Part shown: piece after piece, positions 526 to 64,000 of the stretch | Numbering within the stretch: the stretch's first letter is position 1 | Layout of the letters: the number at the start of each line of letters is the position of its first letter | Virus record (IMG/VR): IMGVR_UViG_3300003323_000541 | Coordinates: 35,902 to 99,901 of that record | Direction: 5' to 3' (one strand) | DNA: 64,000 nt | DNA from: a virus | Program-made: the position numbers and the translations under genes | The notes under the pieces: model-generated | What the model saw: only the letters and a program-made list of their open reading frames with translations | Database searches by the model: none | Told to the model about the DNA's origin: nothing

Positions 526-884
526 TGAAAGCTAAAACCGCTTATATATTAATAGGAACTCTAGGGCTGCTTTGTGTGGCTCTAGGGATCTTATTAGGTA
601 TAAATATGGGTAAAAATAACACTAAGTCAAAAGAGATTGAAGCAAGAGAAGATTCTATCATAGTTCTTCAAACACAGAGAACTCAAATGGAAGAGGATAT
701 AGCATCTTTAACAGAAGAGATCAACAATCAATATGGAAAGCTTCAATATATGACAAGAGAAGTTAAACGCCTAAAAAAGAAAGTTGATGAAAAAGTTGAT
801 TCTGTTGGTCGCCTCAATGACCATGATACATTTTTGTACACCACAAAATACCTCACCAGCAGAGATACAACTGAACGGCGTTAG
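525..884 (+). CDS. Putative i-spanin (Rz-like)
   Basis: N-terminal TM helix followed by coiled coil; overlapped at its 3' end by a lipoprotein-like ORF. Confidence 0.6.
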   Translation: MKAKTAYILIGTLGLLCVALGILLGINMGKNNTKSKEIEAREDSIIVLQTQRTQMEEDIASLTEEINNQYGKLQYMTREVKRLKKKVDEKVDSVGRLNDHDTFLYTTKYLTSRDTTERR

Positions 885-4536: not shown

Positions 4537-7500
4537 TGCCGAAGATTACTTCATCATATATTCAAGGACTATCTCAAGATAGAGCTATTAGTAAGAACGA
4601 TAATAAGCACATAACATTTGGACTTAATATCGATCTTTCTTCATTTGATAACCCAGAGGATGTCGGTATAGTTACCAATCATTCTGGGACAAAGTTCTAT
4701 TGGAGATTACCTGATTTACAACCGGTATATAAAATAGAACTATCGGGGACCCTCGGTAATGGTTCTATAGGAATAGATACGGACACTTCGCTAATAACGG
4801 TATCTTCCACAACAACAATAAAGGATGTATACGATCAACTTATAATAGATTTTGGTGGACAAATAGCATCTGGGGATTATGGTATCCATTACAATAATGA
4901 ATATATCATCATCACGGGCTTTGGAATGAATCCTACACCTGTAGTCTCTGCACAGTTTACAGTAACTACTATTGTATCAGCACAAAGGGATCTATCTATT
5001 ATAGGTTGGACACAACTAGAAGAGGAGATAATTCTTCTCTCTACATCAAGGATTAATACCTCAGAGAACCCTTCTAATACTGCTGGACAAATATGGAGAG
5101 TTGAAATAGATGAGGAAACAGAAGAACCAATTGGTTTATCTGCAGGATCTCTTGTAGCAGCAACTCACCTTGTATATAATCAAATATTGAACTTTTCATT
5201 GGCTCATGAAATAGAAAGAGAGACCATAGCTAAAAAGGAAAGTTCCATTAAAGGAAATGTTTATTGGACTGATGGATATAATCCACCAAGGGTAATAAAT
5301 ATCTACAATCCTCAAAGCTTTGCAATTGATCCTTCTCTTTTAGATTGGACTCCTAGTGTGGACCATTCTATTCCTATTATTCAGGATATTATCGAAGGAG
5401 GAACCAATAGGGTGGGCAGATATCAATTTGCATACAGATATATCTCTAATGATGGTGCAGTAAGTACTTTTTCTCCTGTTAGCAATTTAGTTAATTTAAC
5501 AGATTCTACAGCAACAGAACCATATCAGGATTTTGATGGAGCAGAAGCCGGAACAGAATCAGGTAAGTCCATTAGGTTTAAGATAACCAACCTAGATAGA
5601 TTATTTGACTTCCTGGAGGTTGCTGTTGTTATATATGAAGTTAAGGATGTACCATTAGTATATAAGTTTGCAGAAATACCAATTGATGGTGACGAAATAA
5701 ATATTGTCTATACTGGTAATGAACCAAAGAGTCCTATAACTTTATCAGAGTTCGTTAATCCAAATACTTCGTTTAAAACGATTAAAACCTTTACACAGAA
5801 GAAGGAGAGACTATACCCAGCTAATACCACAACTGAAAGCTTTGAGGTTGATATAGACACCAGAGCATATAGATTTAAATCTTTGCAGACTACCACCCAA
5901 TTGTTTAAAAGAGATGGTACTAGTGATACATTAAACGGTACTACATTTGAAATTGGTGGTAATCCTGTACCTGATGAACATGATGCGGTGAATGCCTACA
6001 ATGATGAATCAGGAACCGTATTTGGGTCCATAGGTGCTGTTAACTGGACAGTTAATCATCAATATAAATATCAATATAATTCCACTAGATTAGGTGGAAC
6101 TGGTCCTGTTATATCTTATTCTTTCTTTAGAAAAGAACTAACCGGAGATGAGGTTAATGATACAGATAGGAGCAATGTACCTTTTGTATACCTTAATCCT
6201 ATTACAGTAACCAACGATAACTTAGGTATTACAGGACAAGATTATCCAACTTTCGGTCCGTATGATAATTTCAAGAGTCCACAGATGTCTTCTGTGTTTA
6301 AAGGACACGCACGAGGGGAAGTCTATCCATATGGTATAGTATTTACCAATAGTAAAGGACAAGAATCGTTTGTATACTGGATTGCTGATATAAGAATACC
6401 TGAACCATGGGAAGATAAAGACGCCGATCTATCGGTGGTTGATGGTTCCAATGCTGATATGTTATTCTTAAATTCTATAGGTATAACCTTTACTGTAGAC
6501 ACAGCAGCAGTTCTAGCGGCTGATCCTACAATTACAGGTTGGTATTTCGTTCGAATGGAAAGAAAGGAGAACGATAAAACCAGACATGGAATGGGAGTAA
6601 TCACTGGTATTGAAGCATTTCTTGACCCCAATGCAGATGGTTCTAGGATAGATTTAGCATCTGGTGGAAACGTAGATGTGTTCATGTTAGGAACAAGATA
6701 TGGACCTGACGCAGCTATTCCTGATATGCTAGACCTCAACAATAATTTCGACACTAATCCATTGATAGACCTCAATGATTCGAAATTAGCTAGCTACTAC
6801 TCTCCTGAGATTGACTTCAACAGATATTCAATAGGTACTGCAGCATTTGCTAAATTACTTCATGTATATAATTTCAAAACAACAAGATATTGGGCTGGAG
6901 AATTACCCGCTGGTAATAAAATAGTAGCAGACTATCGTAAGTTACAGGACATTGATAATTCCCCTGCAAATAACTATTATAATATAAATAAGAGTACTCC
7001 ACTAACTATAGAGACTATAGTTCCTAGCAACTTTAGTACTTCGTTAGGATCAAGGGACTATCATCATATATTTAACTATAAACCTGATGCTGGTGGTACA
7101 GGGGCCGATCATGAACTATCGGGATTTGGAACTAAAGGACTGTTCATAGAATTTGCTACAGACATTCCTACAATAACCCCACCAAATGATCAATTTTATT
7201 TAGCATCACTTGGCTCATTTAATATCGGACAATATGGTGGACCATGGAGAACCAACCGATATAACAGGATATATATATCAGCACAGTCTTACCAGCCAAT
7301 AAAGGTAGCTAACTCTCCACAAACTACTACTGTATTTGGAGGAGATGTAAATATGGTATACTATTCAAGGGTACTATCATTCATGCATTGGAAACAAGAT
7401 TACGGTTATCCTACAGCTACATCTAGTGGTCTTGGACAAGCTTATGAACCAGTTGCTGCAGCAATGTCTGCTGTAGCTATAGTGTTCCCATGTGAAAGTA

Positions 7501-35334: not shown

Positions 35335-35966
35335 TGTGCATTATTTTTTACGTAATAATAAATGTCTCCGTTATCTTTAAAACGGTTCAAATTAAATACC
35401 TCTTCTTCAAGCTTTATAGGATTTCTTACCTGTCCGTGTGATTCTAATATAACTGAAGGATTAACTCCATACTCTTCTGCTATTGATTCATAATCATCAA
35501 TAGATGGACTAATTACCCTGTTTATCGGATATAGGGTAACAGGATCATGAGCATAGAACTTTCTGATGTTATATTTGGTATTATCCGATAGTTTTGTGAA
35601 CTTTGAATCGAAAAATGCATCTACATCATCATATAGATTTTCAGTTAAATCAAACTGCTGTATAAGGAATAATTCATCATCAAGGACATTCTTTGTAAAC
35701 ATCTGACTCATCTCCAAGGCTCCTGTTACTATAACAAAATTAGACTTGTTAGATACAGTTACTTTGGTTTTATTGTAGACATTAAACAATTTATAGTCCG
35801 TACTTACATAGGTATTAAAGAAATAATCCCCATATGTGGATGATGTGTAGCCCAAAAAGGGCAATAAGAAAATACTTGAATCAGTGCAATAATATTCATA
35901 CGTTGGTGAGTTACTGGTTTTATCAGAAGTATCCTCAAAAAGATTAAGATCTTCTAACTCACTCAT
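35331..35966 (-). CDS. Hypothetical protein
   Basis: 211-aa ORF coupled to the exonuclease gene. Confidence 0.6.
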   Translation of the reverse strand: MSELEDLNLFEDTSDKTSNSPTYEYYCTDSSIFLLPFLGYTSSTYGDYFFNTYVSTDYKLFNVYNKTKVTVSNKSNFVIVTGALEMSQMFTKNVLDDELFLIQQFDLTENLYDDVDAFFDSKFTKLSDNTKYNIRKFYAHDPVTLYPINRVISPSIDDYESIAEEYGVNPSVILESHGQVRNPIKLEEEVFNLNRFKDNGDIYYYVKNNAQ

Positions 35967-59977: not shown

Positions 59978-60793
59978 TTTTCACAATTTCAATTAGTTTT
60001 TCTAGACAAGCCTGCTTTGCTTCATTTCTCGTATGAAATGCATATTTTTTTTCAAATATAAGATTGTGAAGTTTCTCATGATTAAGATAGTTTCCAGGTA
60101 TATTTTGATAACATTCTTCAATTAAGTCACCAAATATATTGTTTGGATCTACAATTGATTCATTGTTTATGTCGGATATACCGTATGTCCAATAGGTTAA
60201 TGGATTATTTTTATACGGGTATTGCTTATACATCATACAGGGTAAATCAAAATTATCCTCAAACCAATCAAATGCTTGTTGCCAAAGTGGTGCATCTACA
60301 AATACATCTGAATCAGGATGATAAGCAAATGTTTTATCCTTATAATAACAACCTAAACATTCTTCATCAAAACCAAGCTCTTTAAGTTTTGGTATTTACA
60401 TCTCTCTTTGGACAAACGTCTTAACATATTTTGTATAACATCTGTCCAAAGAGATCGTAAATGTAAGTGTTCACATGATGTCCTGAATGGGAATCTTGTG
60501 TTCTAACATATGAGAGCTTTATCCTTAACTGGGTCTAGCTCTCTTTTATTTTAGGTGTGTTGTCCATTTTTTAGTATTTTAGATTAGAAAATATTAATAC
60601 GGCGTAAGCCCTCTTGTTAGAGAAAACTGGTAATTTTTAATAGACAAGGAGGACGCTTGAGCCCGCATGAAATGCGTGGGCGCTTGCATTCCTGTCTATG
60701 GGTATACCAGTACCTCTCTAACGGTCTGCTTGAAGCCCACGCTGTAATTTACAACCATCCTTTCAGGGCTTCGTAGGGGAATATATTGAGTAA

Positions 60794-61201
60794 ATGCGAT
60801 TATTTCTGTTTGTAGCCTTCTTCCTATCCTTAACTACTTTATACTCTCAATGTCCATCCTTTGAAAAGGTTACCAAAGAGGTTATAGATACCACTTGGAT
60901 GAAGGGTTTCGGCATACTTTTCACCAAAGACCTAAACGATGGATTAAAGGTGTTTCAATACTATAATCCCGAGTTTGATAAAGAATCGTTCTGGTATTTT
61001 ACATTCTATCCTAATGGATATTTATCTCACTTTGATATTCAAAATCCACGTAAAGAATACTTTCAGTGGATAAAGCAGTTTAATAAAGACAAAAATTATG
61101 TTTCTGTTGGTATAGATGAATGGGAGTGCGCTACTGCTCGCGTTAGAATTATTAATGATGGGACTACAAATTTTATTATAGTTCGATTTACTCAAAAATA
61201 A
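60794..61201 (+). CDS. IS passenger: secreted hypothetical protein
   Basis: Sec signal MRLFLFVAFFLSLTTLYS-Q. Confidence 0.65.
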   Translation: MRLFLFVAFFLSLTTLYSQCPSFEKVTKEVIDTTWMKGFGILFTKDLNDGLKVFQYYNPEFDKESFWYFTFYPNGYLSHFDIQNPRKEYFQWIKQFNKDKNYVSVGIDEWECATARVRIINDGTTNFIIVRFTQK

Positions 61202-61230
61202 GTATAGTTAAATCATTTAAAACAGGTATT

Positions 61231-61506
61231 ATGGATTACAATTTTGGAGAATTATTGAAGTCTTTAAATAGTGGAAATCATGATTTTAGAGTAACTGCAC
61301 TTAGAACTTGTTTACAAGTTGCAATAAGTAAAAATCAAGCACATTATTCAGCTCAGTTTGCTGATATTCTTGCAAGGATAGAAATAAGCGAATCCTTTTA
61401 TGAAGTTGCCCCAACCTTATTTATGAAAGATACCGATAAGCAATTTCATCGAGCGGCCTCAATATTGATAGAGATGAATGGTCTTTTAGCTATGAAAACT
61501 AATTAA
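61231..61506 (+). CDS. IS passenger: hypothetical protein
   Basis: 91-aa ORF co-oriented inside the IS. Confidence 0.55.
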   Translation: MDYNFGELLKSLNSGNHDFRVTALRTCLQVAISKNQAHYSAQFADILARIEISESFYEVAPTLFMKDTDKQFHRAASILIEMNGLLAMKTN

Positions 61507-61645
61507 AATCTCGAGTCGCACGAAGGCGACACGAAGATACAAGGGCACTTGTAGGGTTGCTATTCGTGCGTGATACAGTTGAGCGGACTTTACCGGGCCC
61601 TTGTTCTCGTGTCGTTACTAATTAGACGTTAATTATTGTTAGAGT

Positions 61646-61687
61646 AGCCTCATGTACAGAATAGTATATGGGGCTTTTCGTTTTTAT
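61646..61687 (+). terminator. Intrinsic terminator directly upstream of the transposase
   Basis: AGCCTCATGTAC-AGAATA-GTATATGGGGCT followed by TTTCGTTTTTAT. Confidence 0.65.
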
Positions 61688-61709
61688 CCTTTTAAGTTCT
61701 CATCAATTA

Positions 61710-62636
61710 ATGAATCATTTCAAAACTCTAAAAGAGTTAGAAAAGGTATTTAAAACAAACGACGATTGCTTGACGTATTTCGAGCAAATAAGATGGGCGG
61801 ACGGTATAACATGCCCGCATTGTGGTAGTACTAAATACTACACACTAGCTAAAGCCCATAACTTTAAATGTGCAAATAAGCATTGTTACAAAAAATTCAA
61901 TGTTCTAAAGAACACGATCTTTGAAAACACTAAAATCCCTTTACCTGCATGGTTTACGGCTATTTATATAGCAAGTTCCCATAAGAAGGGTATTAGCTCT
62001 GTACAACTCGCTAAAGATGTAGGTATAATTCAGCGTTCAAGCTGGTTTGTTATGCACCGCATTAGAGAGATGTTTAGAGAAGATAATGTGATCCAGTTTA
62101 AAGGTGAAATTGAAGCAGATGAAACCTATGTAGGTGGTAAAGCAGAGAACAAGCACAGATCAAAGAGGGTAAAGGGCGCACAAGGTCGCAGTATGAAAGT
62201 AAAGACCCCTGTTATGGGGATAATTGAACGTGGTGGAAGGATTGTAACCTTTCCTGTTACTTCATTAAGTTCAGCAGCGATTATACCTGTATTAACTAAG
62301 TATGTAACTCCTGATTCTACTATCTATTCAGATGAATGGAGCGGTTATAAGGATGTGCATCGTTCATTTCACCATGAGGTTATTAAGCATAAGAAAGACG
62401 AGTTTGTAAGAGGTAGAGCACATACAAATACAATCGAGGGTTATTGGAGCTTACTAAAGCGTGGAATATATGGTATATATCATCAAACAAGCTCTAAGCA
62501 TTTACACCGATATTGTGTAGAGTTTTCTTTCAGATATAATACCAGGAAGCTAACAGAGGAAGAAAGGTTCATAGAAGCCCTTAAAATGGCTTATGAGAAA
62601 CGTTTGAAGTATCAAGATTTGATTAAAAAAGCGTAG
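61710..62636 (+). CDS. tnp: IS1595-family (ISXO2-like) DDE transposase (ATG 61710; ORF track start 61668)
   Basis: CPHC..CANKHC zinc ribbon, HTH, EADETYVGG, YSDEW, HTNTIEGYW, Y..EF.FRYN. Confidence 0.93.
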   Translation: MNHFKTLKELEKVFKTNDDCLTYFEQIRWADGITCPHCGSTKYYTLAKAHNFKCANKHCYKKFNVLKNTIFENTKIPLPAWFTAIYIASSHKKGISSVQLAKDVGIIQRSSWFVMHRIREMFREDNVIQFKGEIEADETYVGGKAENKHRSKRVKGAQGRSMKVKTPVMGIIERGGRIVTFPVTSLSSAAIIPVLTKYVTPDSTIYSDEWSGYKDVHRSFHHEVIKHKKDEFVRGRAHTNTIEGYWSLLKRGIYGIYHQTSSKHLHRYCVEFSFRYNTRKLTEEERFIEALKMAYEKRLKYQDLIKKA

Positions 62637-62649
62637 ATTAGACAAATAA

Positions 62650-62780
62650 GCCGGAATAGCTCAGTATAAATCTAGAAAATACAATCCTCAGACTTCCAAT
62701 TTGACTGATTGTATAAAGATTAGGTAGAGCGCCAACCCTAATTGGTTCGGAGGTCGCGAGTTCGAGTCTCGTTTCCGGCT
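62650..62780 (+). ncRNA. tRNA-like RNA inside the IS, with ~56-nt hairpin inserted in the D-loop and a distorted anticodon arm
   Basis: GCCGGAA/TTCCGGC acceptor, TAGCTCAGT..GGTAGAGC D arm, AGGTC, GCGAG-TTCGAGT-CTCGT T arm. Confidence 0.75.
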
Positions 62781-62949
62781 TTTTGTTTAATTATCTTTGC
62801 CCAAAGAAAAAGAAGGGCTGAATGAACGGGAGTAAAGTAATCTCATTAGTGAAATGCTCAATTTGGATATATTCAGCCCTTGGATTTGTCCAAAGAGAGA
62901 TGTAGGTGCCTAAGTTTTAATACTAATTCATATGTTACAAATTGTTCTT

Positions 62950-63943: not shown

Positions 63944-64000
63944 TACCCCAGACGGGAATCGAACCCGTGCGCCTGTGAGGGCACAGGATTTTAAGTCCTG
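63944..64000 (-). tRNA. tRNA-Leu(UAA), 5' part outside the window
   Basis: CAGGA-CTTAAAA-TCCTG anticodon arm, long variable arm, ACGGG-TTCGATT-CCCGT T arm, CTGGGGT-A acceptor 3' strand. Confidence 0.85.

Follow-up and report, generated by a model that had tools for sequence, protein, structure and literature searches.

The last 64 kb of the complete 99.9-kb virus record IMGVR_UViG_3300003323_000541 (G+C 35%, record ends overlapping by 25 nt) contain an insertion sequence (IS) of the IS1595 family, and directly after the transposase gene of this IS lies a 131-nt sequence, at positions 62650–62780, that folds as a tRNA cloverleaf and has no anticodon. We refer to the whole stretch of 64,000 nt (positions 35,902 to 99,901 of the record) as the window and give all positions in its coordinates unless another source is named. 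It is very probable that this tRNA-like gene is a non-decoding, IS-borne descendant of a glycine tRNA (tRNA-Gly) gene. As to its role, we tentatively favor a cis-acting module at the 3′ end of the transposase transcription unit, every step of which we infer, and we hold a damaged passenger gene to be nearly as likely as this end-module reading.

Most of the anatomy is that of an ordinary tRNA. The acceptor stem has seven of seven base pairs (GCCGGAA, 62650–62656, with TTCCGGC, 62773–62779), U8 and A9 separate it from a 4-bp D-stem (GCTC, 62659–62662, with GAGC, 62727–62730), and a 5-nt variable loop, AGGTC, leads into the T arm GCGAG-TTCGAGT-CTCGT. The stem geometry of a canonical tRNA is therefore present (7/4/5 bp for the acceptor, D and T stems, all of them Watson–Crick), as is a T-loop, TTCGAGT, that fits the UUCRANY consensus. 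Two parts depart from the canonical plan. The D-loop starts with AGT and finishes with GGTA as expected but holds 57 extra nucleotides between these motifs (62666–62722), such that about 64 nt, 57 of them a hairpin, separate the strands of the D-stem where a canonical tRNA has about 7–11. The extra hairpin is built from the helices AATCT (62669–62673)/AGATT (62717–62721) and ATACAATC (62679–62686)/GATTGTAT (62707–62714). The anticodon arm, for its part, has a 6-bp stem with a bulged C at 62748 and a 6-nt loop, CUAAUU (62738–62743), in place of the canonical 5-bp stem and 7-nt loop with U33, an anticodon at 34–36 and a purine at 37. Among alternative pairings examined with ARAGORN, by folding and by manual enumeration there is no 7-nt loop with U33 and a purine at 37, and the 7-nt loop that ARAGORN forces on the arm comes with a 5-bp stem containing two mispairs. 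The discriminator, U73, is at 62780 and is followed by TTTTGTTT; CCA is not encoded. A spacer of 13 nt separates the tRNA-like gene from the transposase stop codon (TAG, 62634–62636), and no open reading frame (ORF) of at least 40 aa overlaps 62650–62780 on either strand. A sigma-70-type promoter belonging to the tRNA-like gene itself was considered and rejected: none was called by a scan that leaves Bacteroidota-type promoters aside, nor did a manual look reveal a correctly spaced motif.

An earlier note on this DNA had read much of this from the letters and an ORF list, and its description holds up well: the perfect acceptor stem, D arm, AGGTC variable loop and TTCGAGT T arm lie where it placed them, 13 nt after the stop codon, the D-loop hairpin it put at about 56 nt is there with both helices (at 57 nt), the 19-nt anticodon arm without a clear anticodon is borne out by the fold and by alignment with tRNA-Gly, and a T-tract rather than an encoded CCA does follow. 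Its interpretation is supported in part, in that we find a tRNA-derived, non-decoding cloverleaf inside a transposable element and directly after the transposase gene.

Neither ARAGORN nor Rfam/Infernal at default filters reports the tRNA-like gene. With permissive filters only, the Rfam tRNA model (RF00005) matches exactly 62650–62780 at 34.2 bits (gathering threshold 29, E 5e-5), in an alignment whose D-loop has a 61-nt insertion and whose anticodon arm has a local exit. In silico deletion of the insert is enough for ARAGORN to call a tRNA, and the program also calls one with the insert retained, in intron mode at a lowered threshold. This tRNA match is the sole credible Rfam match in 61400–62900 at E values up to 10; no covariance model of another family, Y-RNA-like and catalogued tRNA-like RNAs included, matches credibly in that interval and range. 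Folded as 132 nt, the sequence has a cloverleaf as its minimum-free-energy (MFE) structure, with the long hairpin prolonging the D-arm (−37.2 kcal/mol, z −2.7, with 0 of 200 shuffles as good), and the 57-nt insert by itself forms helices of 5, 8 and 5 bp (−10.3 kcal/mol, z −2.5, 4 of 200 shuffles). The tRNA-like structure at 62650–62780 exceeds chance expectation. Because ARAGORN and Infernal at default filters, both standard tRNA finders, miss it, elements of this kind are probably under-counted.

When 401 Bacteroidales and 401 Bacteroidota genomes were searched for the parent with the 63 nt at the 3′ end, tRNA-Gly genes came out as best matches, at 97% identity for the final 30 nt and 82% for 58 nt. 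Global alignment of the sequence without its insert ranks Gly(UCC) above Gly(GCC), Gly(CCC) and Thr(CGU), in that order, and we rejected tRNA-Thr as the parent on its lower alignment score. The D-arm, T arm, T-loop, U73 and the anticodon-stem sequence CAACC/GGTT are the same as in tRNA-Gly(UCC), and so are six of the seven acceptor pairs; the 3:70 pair alone differs, both sides having changed from G:C to C:G with the pairing kept. In the anticodon loop, CU[UCC]AA of tRNA-Gly(UCC) aligns with CU[---]AAUU: C32-U33 and A37-A38 have counterparts, the triplet is absent and two U's follow. The other changes are the bulged C in the 3′ strand of the anticodon stem and one additional nucleotide each at position 26 and in the variable loop. 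Normal decoding is not possible, since there is neither an anticodon triplet nor a 7-nt loop with U33 and a purine at 37. An amber suppressor with anticodon CUA was considered and discarded, since the stem it requires would leave 6 nt for the loop and nothing for position 26. The identity set of glycyl-tRNA synthetase (GlyRS) consists of U73, G1:C72, C2:G71, G3:C70 and C35/C36. The first three of these determinants are present in the tRNA-like gene, whereas G3:C70 (here C3:G70) and C35 and C36 (no triplet in the alignment) are absent. A pattern search of 121 Bacteroidales genomes found no tRNA with a matching 5′ part.

The differences from tRNA-Gly are unevenly placed. No pair is broken in the acceptor, D or T stem (16 pairs in total), and the T-loop is exactly that of tRNA-Gly; the sole substitutions in these stems, C3 and G70, compensate each other. 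The remaining changes are confined to the D-loop, position 26, the anticodon arm and the variable loop. With about six independent events, the probability that all miss the 41 "shape" positions is p ~0.008, a post hoc value that depends on the assumed parent. The cloverleaf shape thus looks maintained, judging by the pattern of changes. The features of the acceptor/T minihelix and of the elbow, the parts recognized by RNase P, RNase Z and the CCA-adding enzyme, are present (the 7-bp acceptor stem, 4-bp D-stem, 5-bp T-stem, unchanged T-loop, U8, A14, G18-G19 and U73). The parts that were kept would then be exactly those that tRNA-processing enzymes read, and the part that was lost would be exactly decoding.

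The tRNA-like gene is part of the IS and not of the phage DNA proper. When the IS and one copy of its target duplication are removed, a 156-aa phage ORF on the minus strand is restored; its alignment with the uninterrupted homologues of 15 other viral contigs starts at residue 1 and continues through the junction. The perfect 8-bp duplication, the intact transposase and the restorable target gene indicate a recent insertion; the IS is intact and recently mobile. Family membership is clear from the transposase, which matches Pfam DDE_Tnp_IS1595 (4.5e-44), Zn_ribbon_IS1595 (8.8e-13) and NCBIfam NF033547 (201.8 bits against a cut-off of 75) and hence has both the DDE domain and the zinc ribbon, and from the terminal inverted repeats with an 8-bp target-site duplication. 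These repeats and the duplication also confirm "transposon-borne", as the earlier note had it.

We propose, as one possible and currently our preferred reading, that the tRNA-like gene serves the 3′ end of the transposase transcript. Transcription would run from the transposase gene into the cloverleaf and would end at the acceptor helix and the U-tract directly after it, in the slot where relatives have a plain terminator hairpin. RNase P would cleave at 62649/62650, 13 nt past the stop codon, and the cut would leave a transposase mRNA without a protective 3′ hairpin, keeping the transposase level low. The by-product would be a compact, stable tRNA-like RNA that displays the 57-nt hairpin.

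Several features of the locus are consistent with this end-module reading. The tRNA-like gene exactly fills the gap from the transposase stop (62636) to the subterminal repeat (62796). In five relatives (L090, L096, L103, L119 and L160) a gap of 253–292 nt extends from the transposase stop to the right inverted repeat and is taken up by a small ORF and then, just inside that repeat, a strong intrinsic terminator; the same slot in this IS holds the cloverleaf and then directly UUUUUGUUU. A terminator scan found no other terminator-like hairpin 3′ of the transposase gene within the IS, the nearest on this strand preceding the gene at 61646–61675. The suggestion of the earlier note that the structure serves the end of the transposase mRNA fits the anatomy, both in the use of the relatives' terminator slot and in being the sole terminator-like feature after the gene. 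That the changes spare the pairing of the acceptor, D and T stems and the T-loop, and that the position is that of a terminator, argue for something more than debris.

Other observations weigh against an end module. The acceptor helix, with five G-C pairs among its seven ahead of the T-tract, closes a multi-branch structure, not a simple hairpin, and the terminator scan does not call it. The relatives make do with an ordinary terminator, so a cloverleaf is unnecessary for the task. In the MFE fold the first nucleotides of the insert are paired to G19-U20-A21, possibly at the expense of the elbow that RNase P reads. The C3:G70 pair may be inherited rather than compensated. Finally, the tRNA-like gene is a singleton in all of our searches.

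These searches were extensive. The comparison set comprised 160 IS1595 loci (80 bacterial and 80 viral) with transposases 40–49% identical to the one studied here; the nearest transposases in a 5.8-billion-protein set, which lists the 308-aa protein itself as P0001, are 50–58% identical (P0002–P0008, 52–58%). Inverted repeats of the same type (GGYANCTATATAC...GGGACAAA) occur in many of the 160 loci, and these are cargo elements of 2–4 kb. None of the 160 has a tRNA or tRNA-like sequence inside the element (ARAGORN; nhmmer), and in the same loci there was no second copy of the T-arm-plus-acceptor pattern at any spacing up to 400 nt and no nhmmer match to the tRNA-like element, its insert, its tail or its hairpin. 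A covariance model, R1, that tolerates a D-loop insert likewise found no second copy in the ~928 kb of these loci. The comparison proposed in the earlier note, of IS1595 3′ regions for a conserved cloverleaf with a variable insert, thus came out negative at the distance within reach.

Nor did another copy emerge from cultured phages (blastn, distant mode), from viral contigs searched by transposase protein or by the exact 3′ half of the tRNA-like gene, from a search for the inverted-repeat core with at most 4 mismatches, or from 401 Bacteroidales genomes searched with the transposase at E ≤ 1e-95. No repeat of the insert hairpin is present in the phage genome or the IS1595 loci, and no sequencing runs are listed for the whole IS. 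A pattern of a tRNA-Gly D-arm with a 40–70-nt insert found nothing comparable in viral or metagenome contigs; the 68 metagenome stretches obtained with the D-loop-insert pattern are tRNA-half satellites, partial tRNA-Gly duplications or chance matches.

The same searches brought up a number of other tRNA-related sequences. Two stretches from two different metagenomes, L244 (9002–9064, minus strand) and L259 (10479–10609, minus strand), each have a tRNA-Gly-like 5′ part, one or two D-loop hairpins and a truncated T arm, share a rebuilt anticodon stem of 7 bp (CAATCCC/GGGATTG), do not exceed 15 bits with model R1 and lie directly upstream of an intact tRNA-Gly gene; from their sequences they look like decayed partial tRNA-Gly duplicates. 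In seven further stretches from several metagenomes (L208, L216, L218, L228, L247, L264 and L269) an intact tRNA-Gly gene is immediately preceded by a truncated tRNA-Gly 5′ part joined to a G+C-rich hairpin. The stretches L204, L206, L207, L209–L214 and many others, from metagenomes Ga0224501 and Ga0224511, are long tandem arrays of ~35-nt units made of tRNA 5′ halves (TAGTGGAATAGCTCAGTGGGTAGAGCACTATGGGA), that is, a tRNA-derived satellite. A Bacteroidota genome (L271; G681:C54, ~5450–5525) has a gene with a tRNA-Gly body and CCA end and the serine anticodon GCU, which ARAGORN labels tRNA-Ser. Among the IS1595 relatives, L019, L061 and L077 lie 100–900 nt downstream of tRNA-Met(CAU) genes in the same orientation. 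We rejected the tRNA-Met genes near L019 and L077 as IS cargo, both being outside the inverted repeats; the proximity seen at the three loci may reflect an insertion preference near tRNA genes, or chance.

What the structure is for can be weighed against this record. It could be an inert relic, a host tRNA-Gly captured as an IS1595 passenger and then disabled by the 57-nt D-loop insertion and by insertions and deletions in the anticodon arm, and we give this explanation a serious chance, if one short of even. Its absence from the 160 IS1595 loci and from all collection scans is what a relic would predict, both lesions strike what a working tRNA requires, and decayed tRNA-Gly fragments with D-loop inserts do exist elsewhere as plain pseudogenes (L244 and L259). 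The IS moreover contains other structured, GC-rich non-coding DNA without explanation, and inactive irregular tRNAs adjoining transposon genes have been described (Mukai et al. 2017, PMC5389517). A relic sits less easily with the perfect stems outside the anticodon arm, the unchanged T-loop and the clustering of changes in the loops and anticodon arm, with the retained pairing at 3:70, with an insert that is itself a well-formed hairpin and a rebuilt anticodon arm that is still a stable helix, and with a location precisely in the terminator slot with a T-tract after it. Were the sequence a mere damaged passenger, it would be an ordinary by-product of transposon cargo capture. At the opposite pole, the mobile element would have turned a tRNA-Gly gene into a purpose-built, anticodon-less chassis, using RNase P, RNase Z and the CCA-adding enzyme to terminate and trim the transposase transcript while releasing a stable small RNA that presents the hairpin. 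We think this stronger version of the end module unlikely; if true, it would be a bacterial, transposon-borne counterpart of MALAT1/mascRNA and a natural "tRNA scaffold".

Less probable again is a tRNA mimic acting in trans, bound by a tRNA-recognizing factor (a defense nuclease, a modification enzyme, the CCA-adding enzyme or an EF-Tu-independent partner) or using the tRNA body as a chassis on which its hairpin is shown as a stable aptamer or small RNA. Minihelix and elbow are kept and decoding has been removed, as such a mimic would need, and the insertion is in D-loop positions 16–17a. These positions vary in length among natural tRNAs and are the likeliest place to tolerate extra nucleotides. 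Published irregular tRNAs, too, are associated with toxin-antitoxin loci (PMC5389517). On the other hand, the element is a single copy, the cargo ORFs have no defense, toxin-antitoxin or tRNA-enzyme signature, and the hairpin has neither an outstanding complementary target in the IS transcript (z ~0) nor a repeat in the phage genome; at this level of complementarity we also dropped an antisense role for the hairpin within the IS. Nothing points to the decoy for tRNA-targeting defenses that the earlier note had entertained, the cargo ORFs being free of defense and toxin-antitoxin signatures. The same note's non-canonical intron fares no better. A real tRNA of unusual decoding with a removable intervening sequence, either spliced out or cut by RNase III without re-ligation to give a nicked tRNA, would account for the tRNA that ARAGORN calls after deletion of the insert, and the hairpin is a stacked helix of ~18 bp. 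Yet removing the insert leaves a 6-nt loop, a bulged stem and no triplet at 34–36, the GlyRS pair G3:C70 and C35/C36 are absent, 57 nt is far below the size of group I or group II introns, no intron or ribozyme family in Rfam matches at E up to 10, and the fold has no 3-4-3 bulge-helix-bulge arrangement. An archaeal-type splicing endonuclease is not known from bacteria or their phages, and we regard an intervening sequence as highly improbable.

Should the end-module reading or another functional role prove right, insertion sequences can recruit tRNA-maturation enzymes to shape their own mRNA, with a bearing on low transposase levels, and the tRNA fold tolerates a large D-loop hairpin, with a bearing on natural and engineered tRNA scaffolds.

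The remaining features of the IS are collected in Table 1. From left to right the element consists of a non-coding left part with a G+C-rich structured stretch, two small ORFs, a long G+C-rich hairpin, a terminator-like hairpin, the transposase gene, the tRNA-like gene with its T-tract, the subterminal repeat copy and the right inverted repeat. Each end has a second, subterminal copy of the inner inverted-repeat motif TTTGYCCAAAGA, inverted at the left end (60403–60419 with 60438–60454); this arrangement of motifs suggests two transposase-binding sites per IS end.

Table 1. Features of the IS1595-family element and of the tRNA-like gene that it carries (window coordinates)
Feature	Position	Strand	Basis or remark
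Whole IS1595-family cargo element ("transporter IS"), 2,520 bp	60391..62910	+	Inverted repeats and target duplication; excision restores phage ORF
Left target-site duplication, 8 bp, TAAGTTTT	60383..60390	.	Identical to 62911–62918
Right target-site duplication, 8 bp, TAAGTTTT	62911..62918	.	Perfect copy of left duplication
Left terminal inverted repeat, 26 bp	60391..60416	+	Repeat search; 23/26 positions match right repeat
Right terminal inverted repeat, 26 bp	62885..62910	-	Repeat search; 23/26 positions match left repeat
Subterminal direct copy of inner right-repeat motif, TTTGCCCAAAGA	62796..62807	+	Repeat search; corresponds to 62885–62896
Cargo ORF 1, 135 aa, no family	60794..61201	+	ORF list; no Pfam, PADLOC or NCBIfam match
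Cargo ORF 2, 91 aa, small helical protein, no family	61231..61506	+	ORF list; no Pfam, PADLOC or NCBIfam match
Terminator-like hairpin and T-tract closing cargo unit, upstream of transposase gene	61646..61675	+	Promoter/terminator scan
IS1595-family transposase gene, 308 aa	61710..62636	+	ATG at 61710, frame open from 61668, stop TAG 62634–62636
tRNA-Gly-derived tRNA-like gene (very probable)	62650..62780	+	131 nt including U73; Rfam tRNA 34.2 bits, cloverleaf MFE fold, best alignment with Bacteroidota tRNA-Gly
A+U-rich 57-nt hairpin in D-loop, between A14-G15-U16 and G18-G19	62666..62722	+	Fold; boundaries ambiguous by a few nt
Rebuilt anticodon arm, CCAACC-CTAATT-GGTT(C)GG, 19 nt	62732..62750	+	MFE fold and tRNA-Gly(UCC/GCC) alignment
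U73 followed by T-tract TTTTTGTTT	62780..62788	+	Sequence; CCA not encoded

The two cargo ORFs gave no defense, toxin-antitoxin or tRNA-enzyme signature in Pfam, PADLOC, NCBIfam or Atlas. Cargo ORF 1 has no relatives in viral contigs, and cargo ORF 2 has HEAT-like look-alikes in Atlas at low confidence. Upstream of cargo ORF 1, at 60594–60780 on the plus strand, is a G+C-rich structured non-coding stretch without an Rfam match at E ≤ 1, and the left non-coding part has one weak nhmmer match (E 8e-4; L072:4637–4825, minus strand), ~1.2 kb downstream of an IS1595 transposase in a Saprospirales metagenome-assembled genome. Between cargo ORF 2 and the hairpin at 61646–61675, an imperfect G+C-rich hairpin of ~95 nt occupies 61517–61617 on the plus strand, again without an Rfam match; the 171-nt stretch around it has a fold z of −2.9.

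The phage that harbors the IS has a DNA polymerase whose closest counterparts, at ~30% identity, are found in Cellulophaga phage phi14:2 and in Flavobacterium phages. Taken with the polymerase, the size of the phage and a 4,684-aa ORF are consistent with a crAss-like phage. The standard genetic code fits it, ORFs of at least 100 aa covering 87% of the sequence under that code, and we rejected stop-codon recoding on the same figure. A homologue of the interrupted phage gene (L279:2962–3327) has an in-frame stop at codon 8 in an otherwise continuous alignment, which may reflect stop-codon recoding in that other phage. Three further tRNA-like features belong to the phage genome itself. A partial tRNA at 63944–64000 (minus strand) continues at the genome start and is a tRNA-Leu(UAA) that spans the 25-nt end overlap. 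Outside the window, ARAGORN reports a "tRNA-?(ta)" with a 6-nt anticodon loop at 6968–7042 (minus strand) of the genome record (G000:C1), and a 66-nt cloverleaf-like sequence adjoins tRNA-Phe at 626–691 (minus strand), without an ARAGORN call.

In the literature we found no precedent for IS-borne tRNA-like elements, for D-loop insertions or for tRNA-like ends of transposase mRNAs. The element is well-formed but unique, and its architecture is unusual. Compared with the tRNA-Gly (UCC/GCC) of Bacteroidota, it has the same D-arm, CAACC/GGTT, T arm GCGAG-TTCGAGT-CTCGT and U73 and six of seven acceptor pairs, but it differs in the D-loop hairpin, the 6-nt loop without a triplet, the bulged C, the extra nucleotides at 26 and in the variable loop and C3:G70, and it resides on a mobile element rather than in a tRNA operon. 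Closer in setting are irregular tRNAs that probably take no part in translation and that were found near genes of transposons and toxin-antitoxin systems (Mukai et al. 2017, NAR 45:2776, PMC5389517), one class of which has U73 and was not charged when tested with GlyRS and ThrRS. Like these, the element is tRNA-derived, non-standard and next to a transposon gene. However, the irregular tRNAs have an 8/4 or 9/3 acceptor/T geometry and a long variable arm or extra loop and keep their anticodon, whereas the element is of standard 7/5 geometry with 5 nt in the variable loop, bears a hairpin in the D-loop and lacks an anticodon; it does not qualify as an allo-tRNA.

The carrier resembles the passenger-bearing IS1595-family elements that Siguier, Gagnevin and Chandler reportedly described in 2009 as "transporter IS". 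Like them it encodes a DDE transposase whose N-terminal part is a zinc ribbon, has inverted repeats that begin with GG and an 8-bp target duplication, and carries passengers on both sides of the transposase gene, and it is unlike its relatives in having a tRNA-like gene inside (0 of the 43 relatives whose ends were found; 0 of 160 loci overall). The tRNA-like gene in turn takes the place of the intrinsic terminators of related IS1595 elements, just inside the right inverted repeat, and like them presents a G+C-rich helix followed by a U-tract, except that the helix here is an acceptor stem closing a 131-nt four-way junction. The nearest parallel to the proposed function is MALAT1 mascRNA, where a tRNA-shaped downstream structure cut by RNase P defines the 3′ end of the upstream RNA and releases a small tRNA-like RNA (PMC8457004). 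That system is eukaryotic, nuclear, experimentally demonstrated and unrelated in sequence; what the bacterial IS may share with it, by analogy, is the concept.

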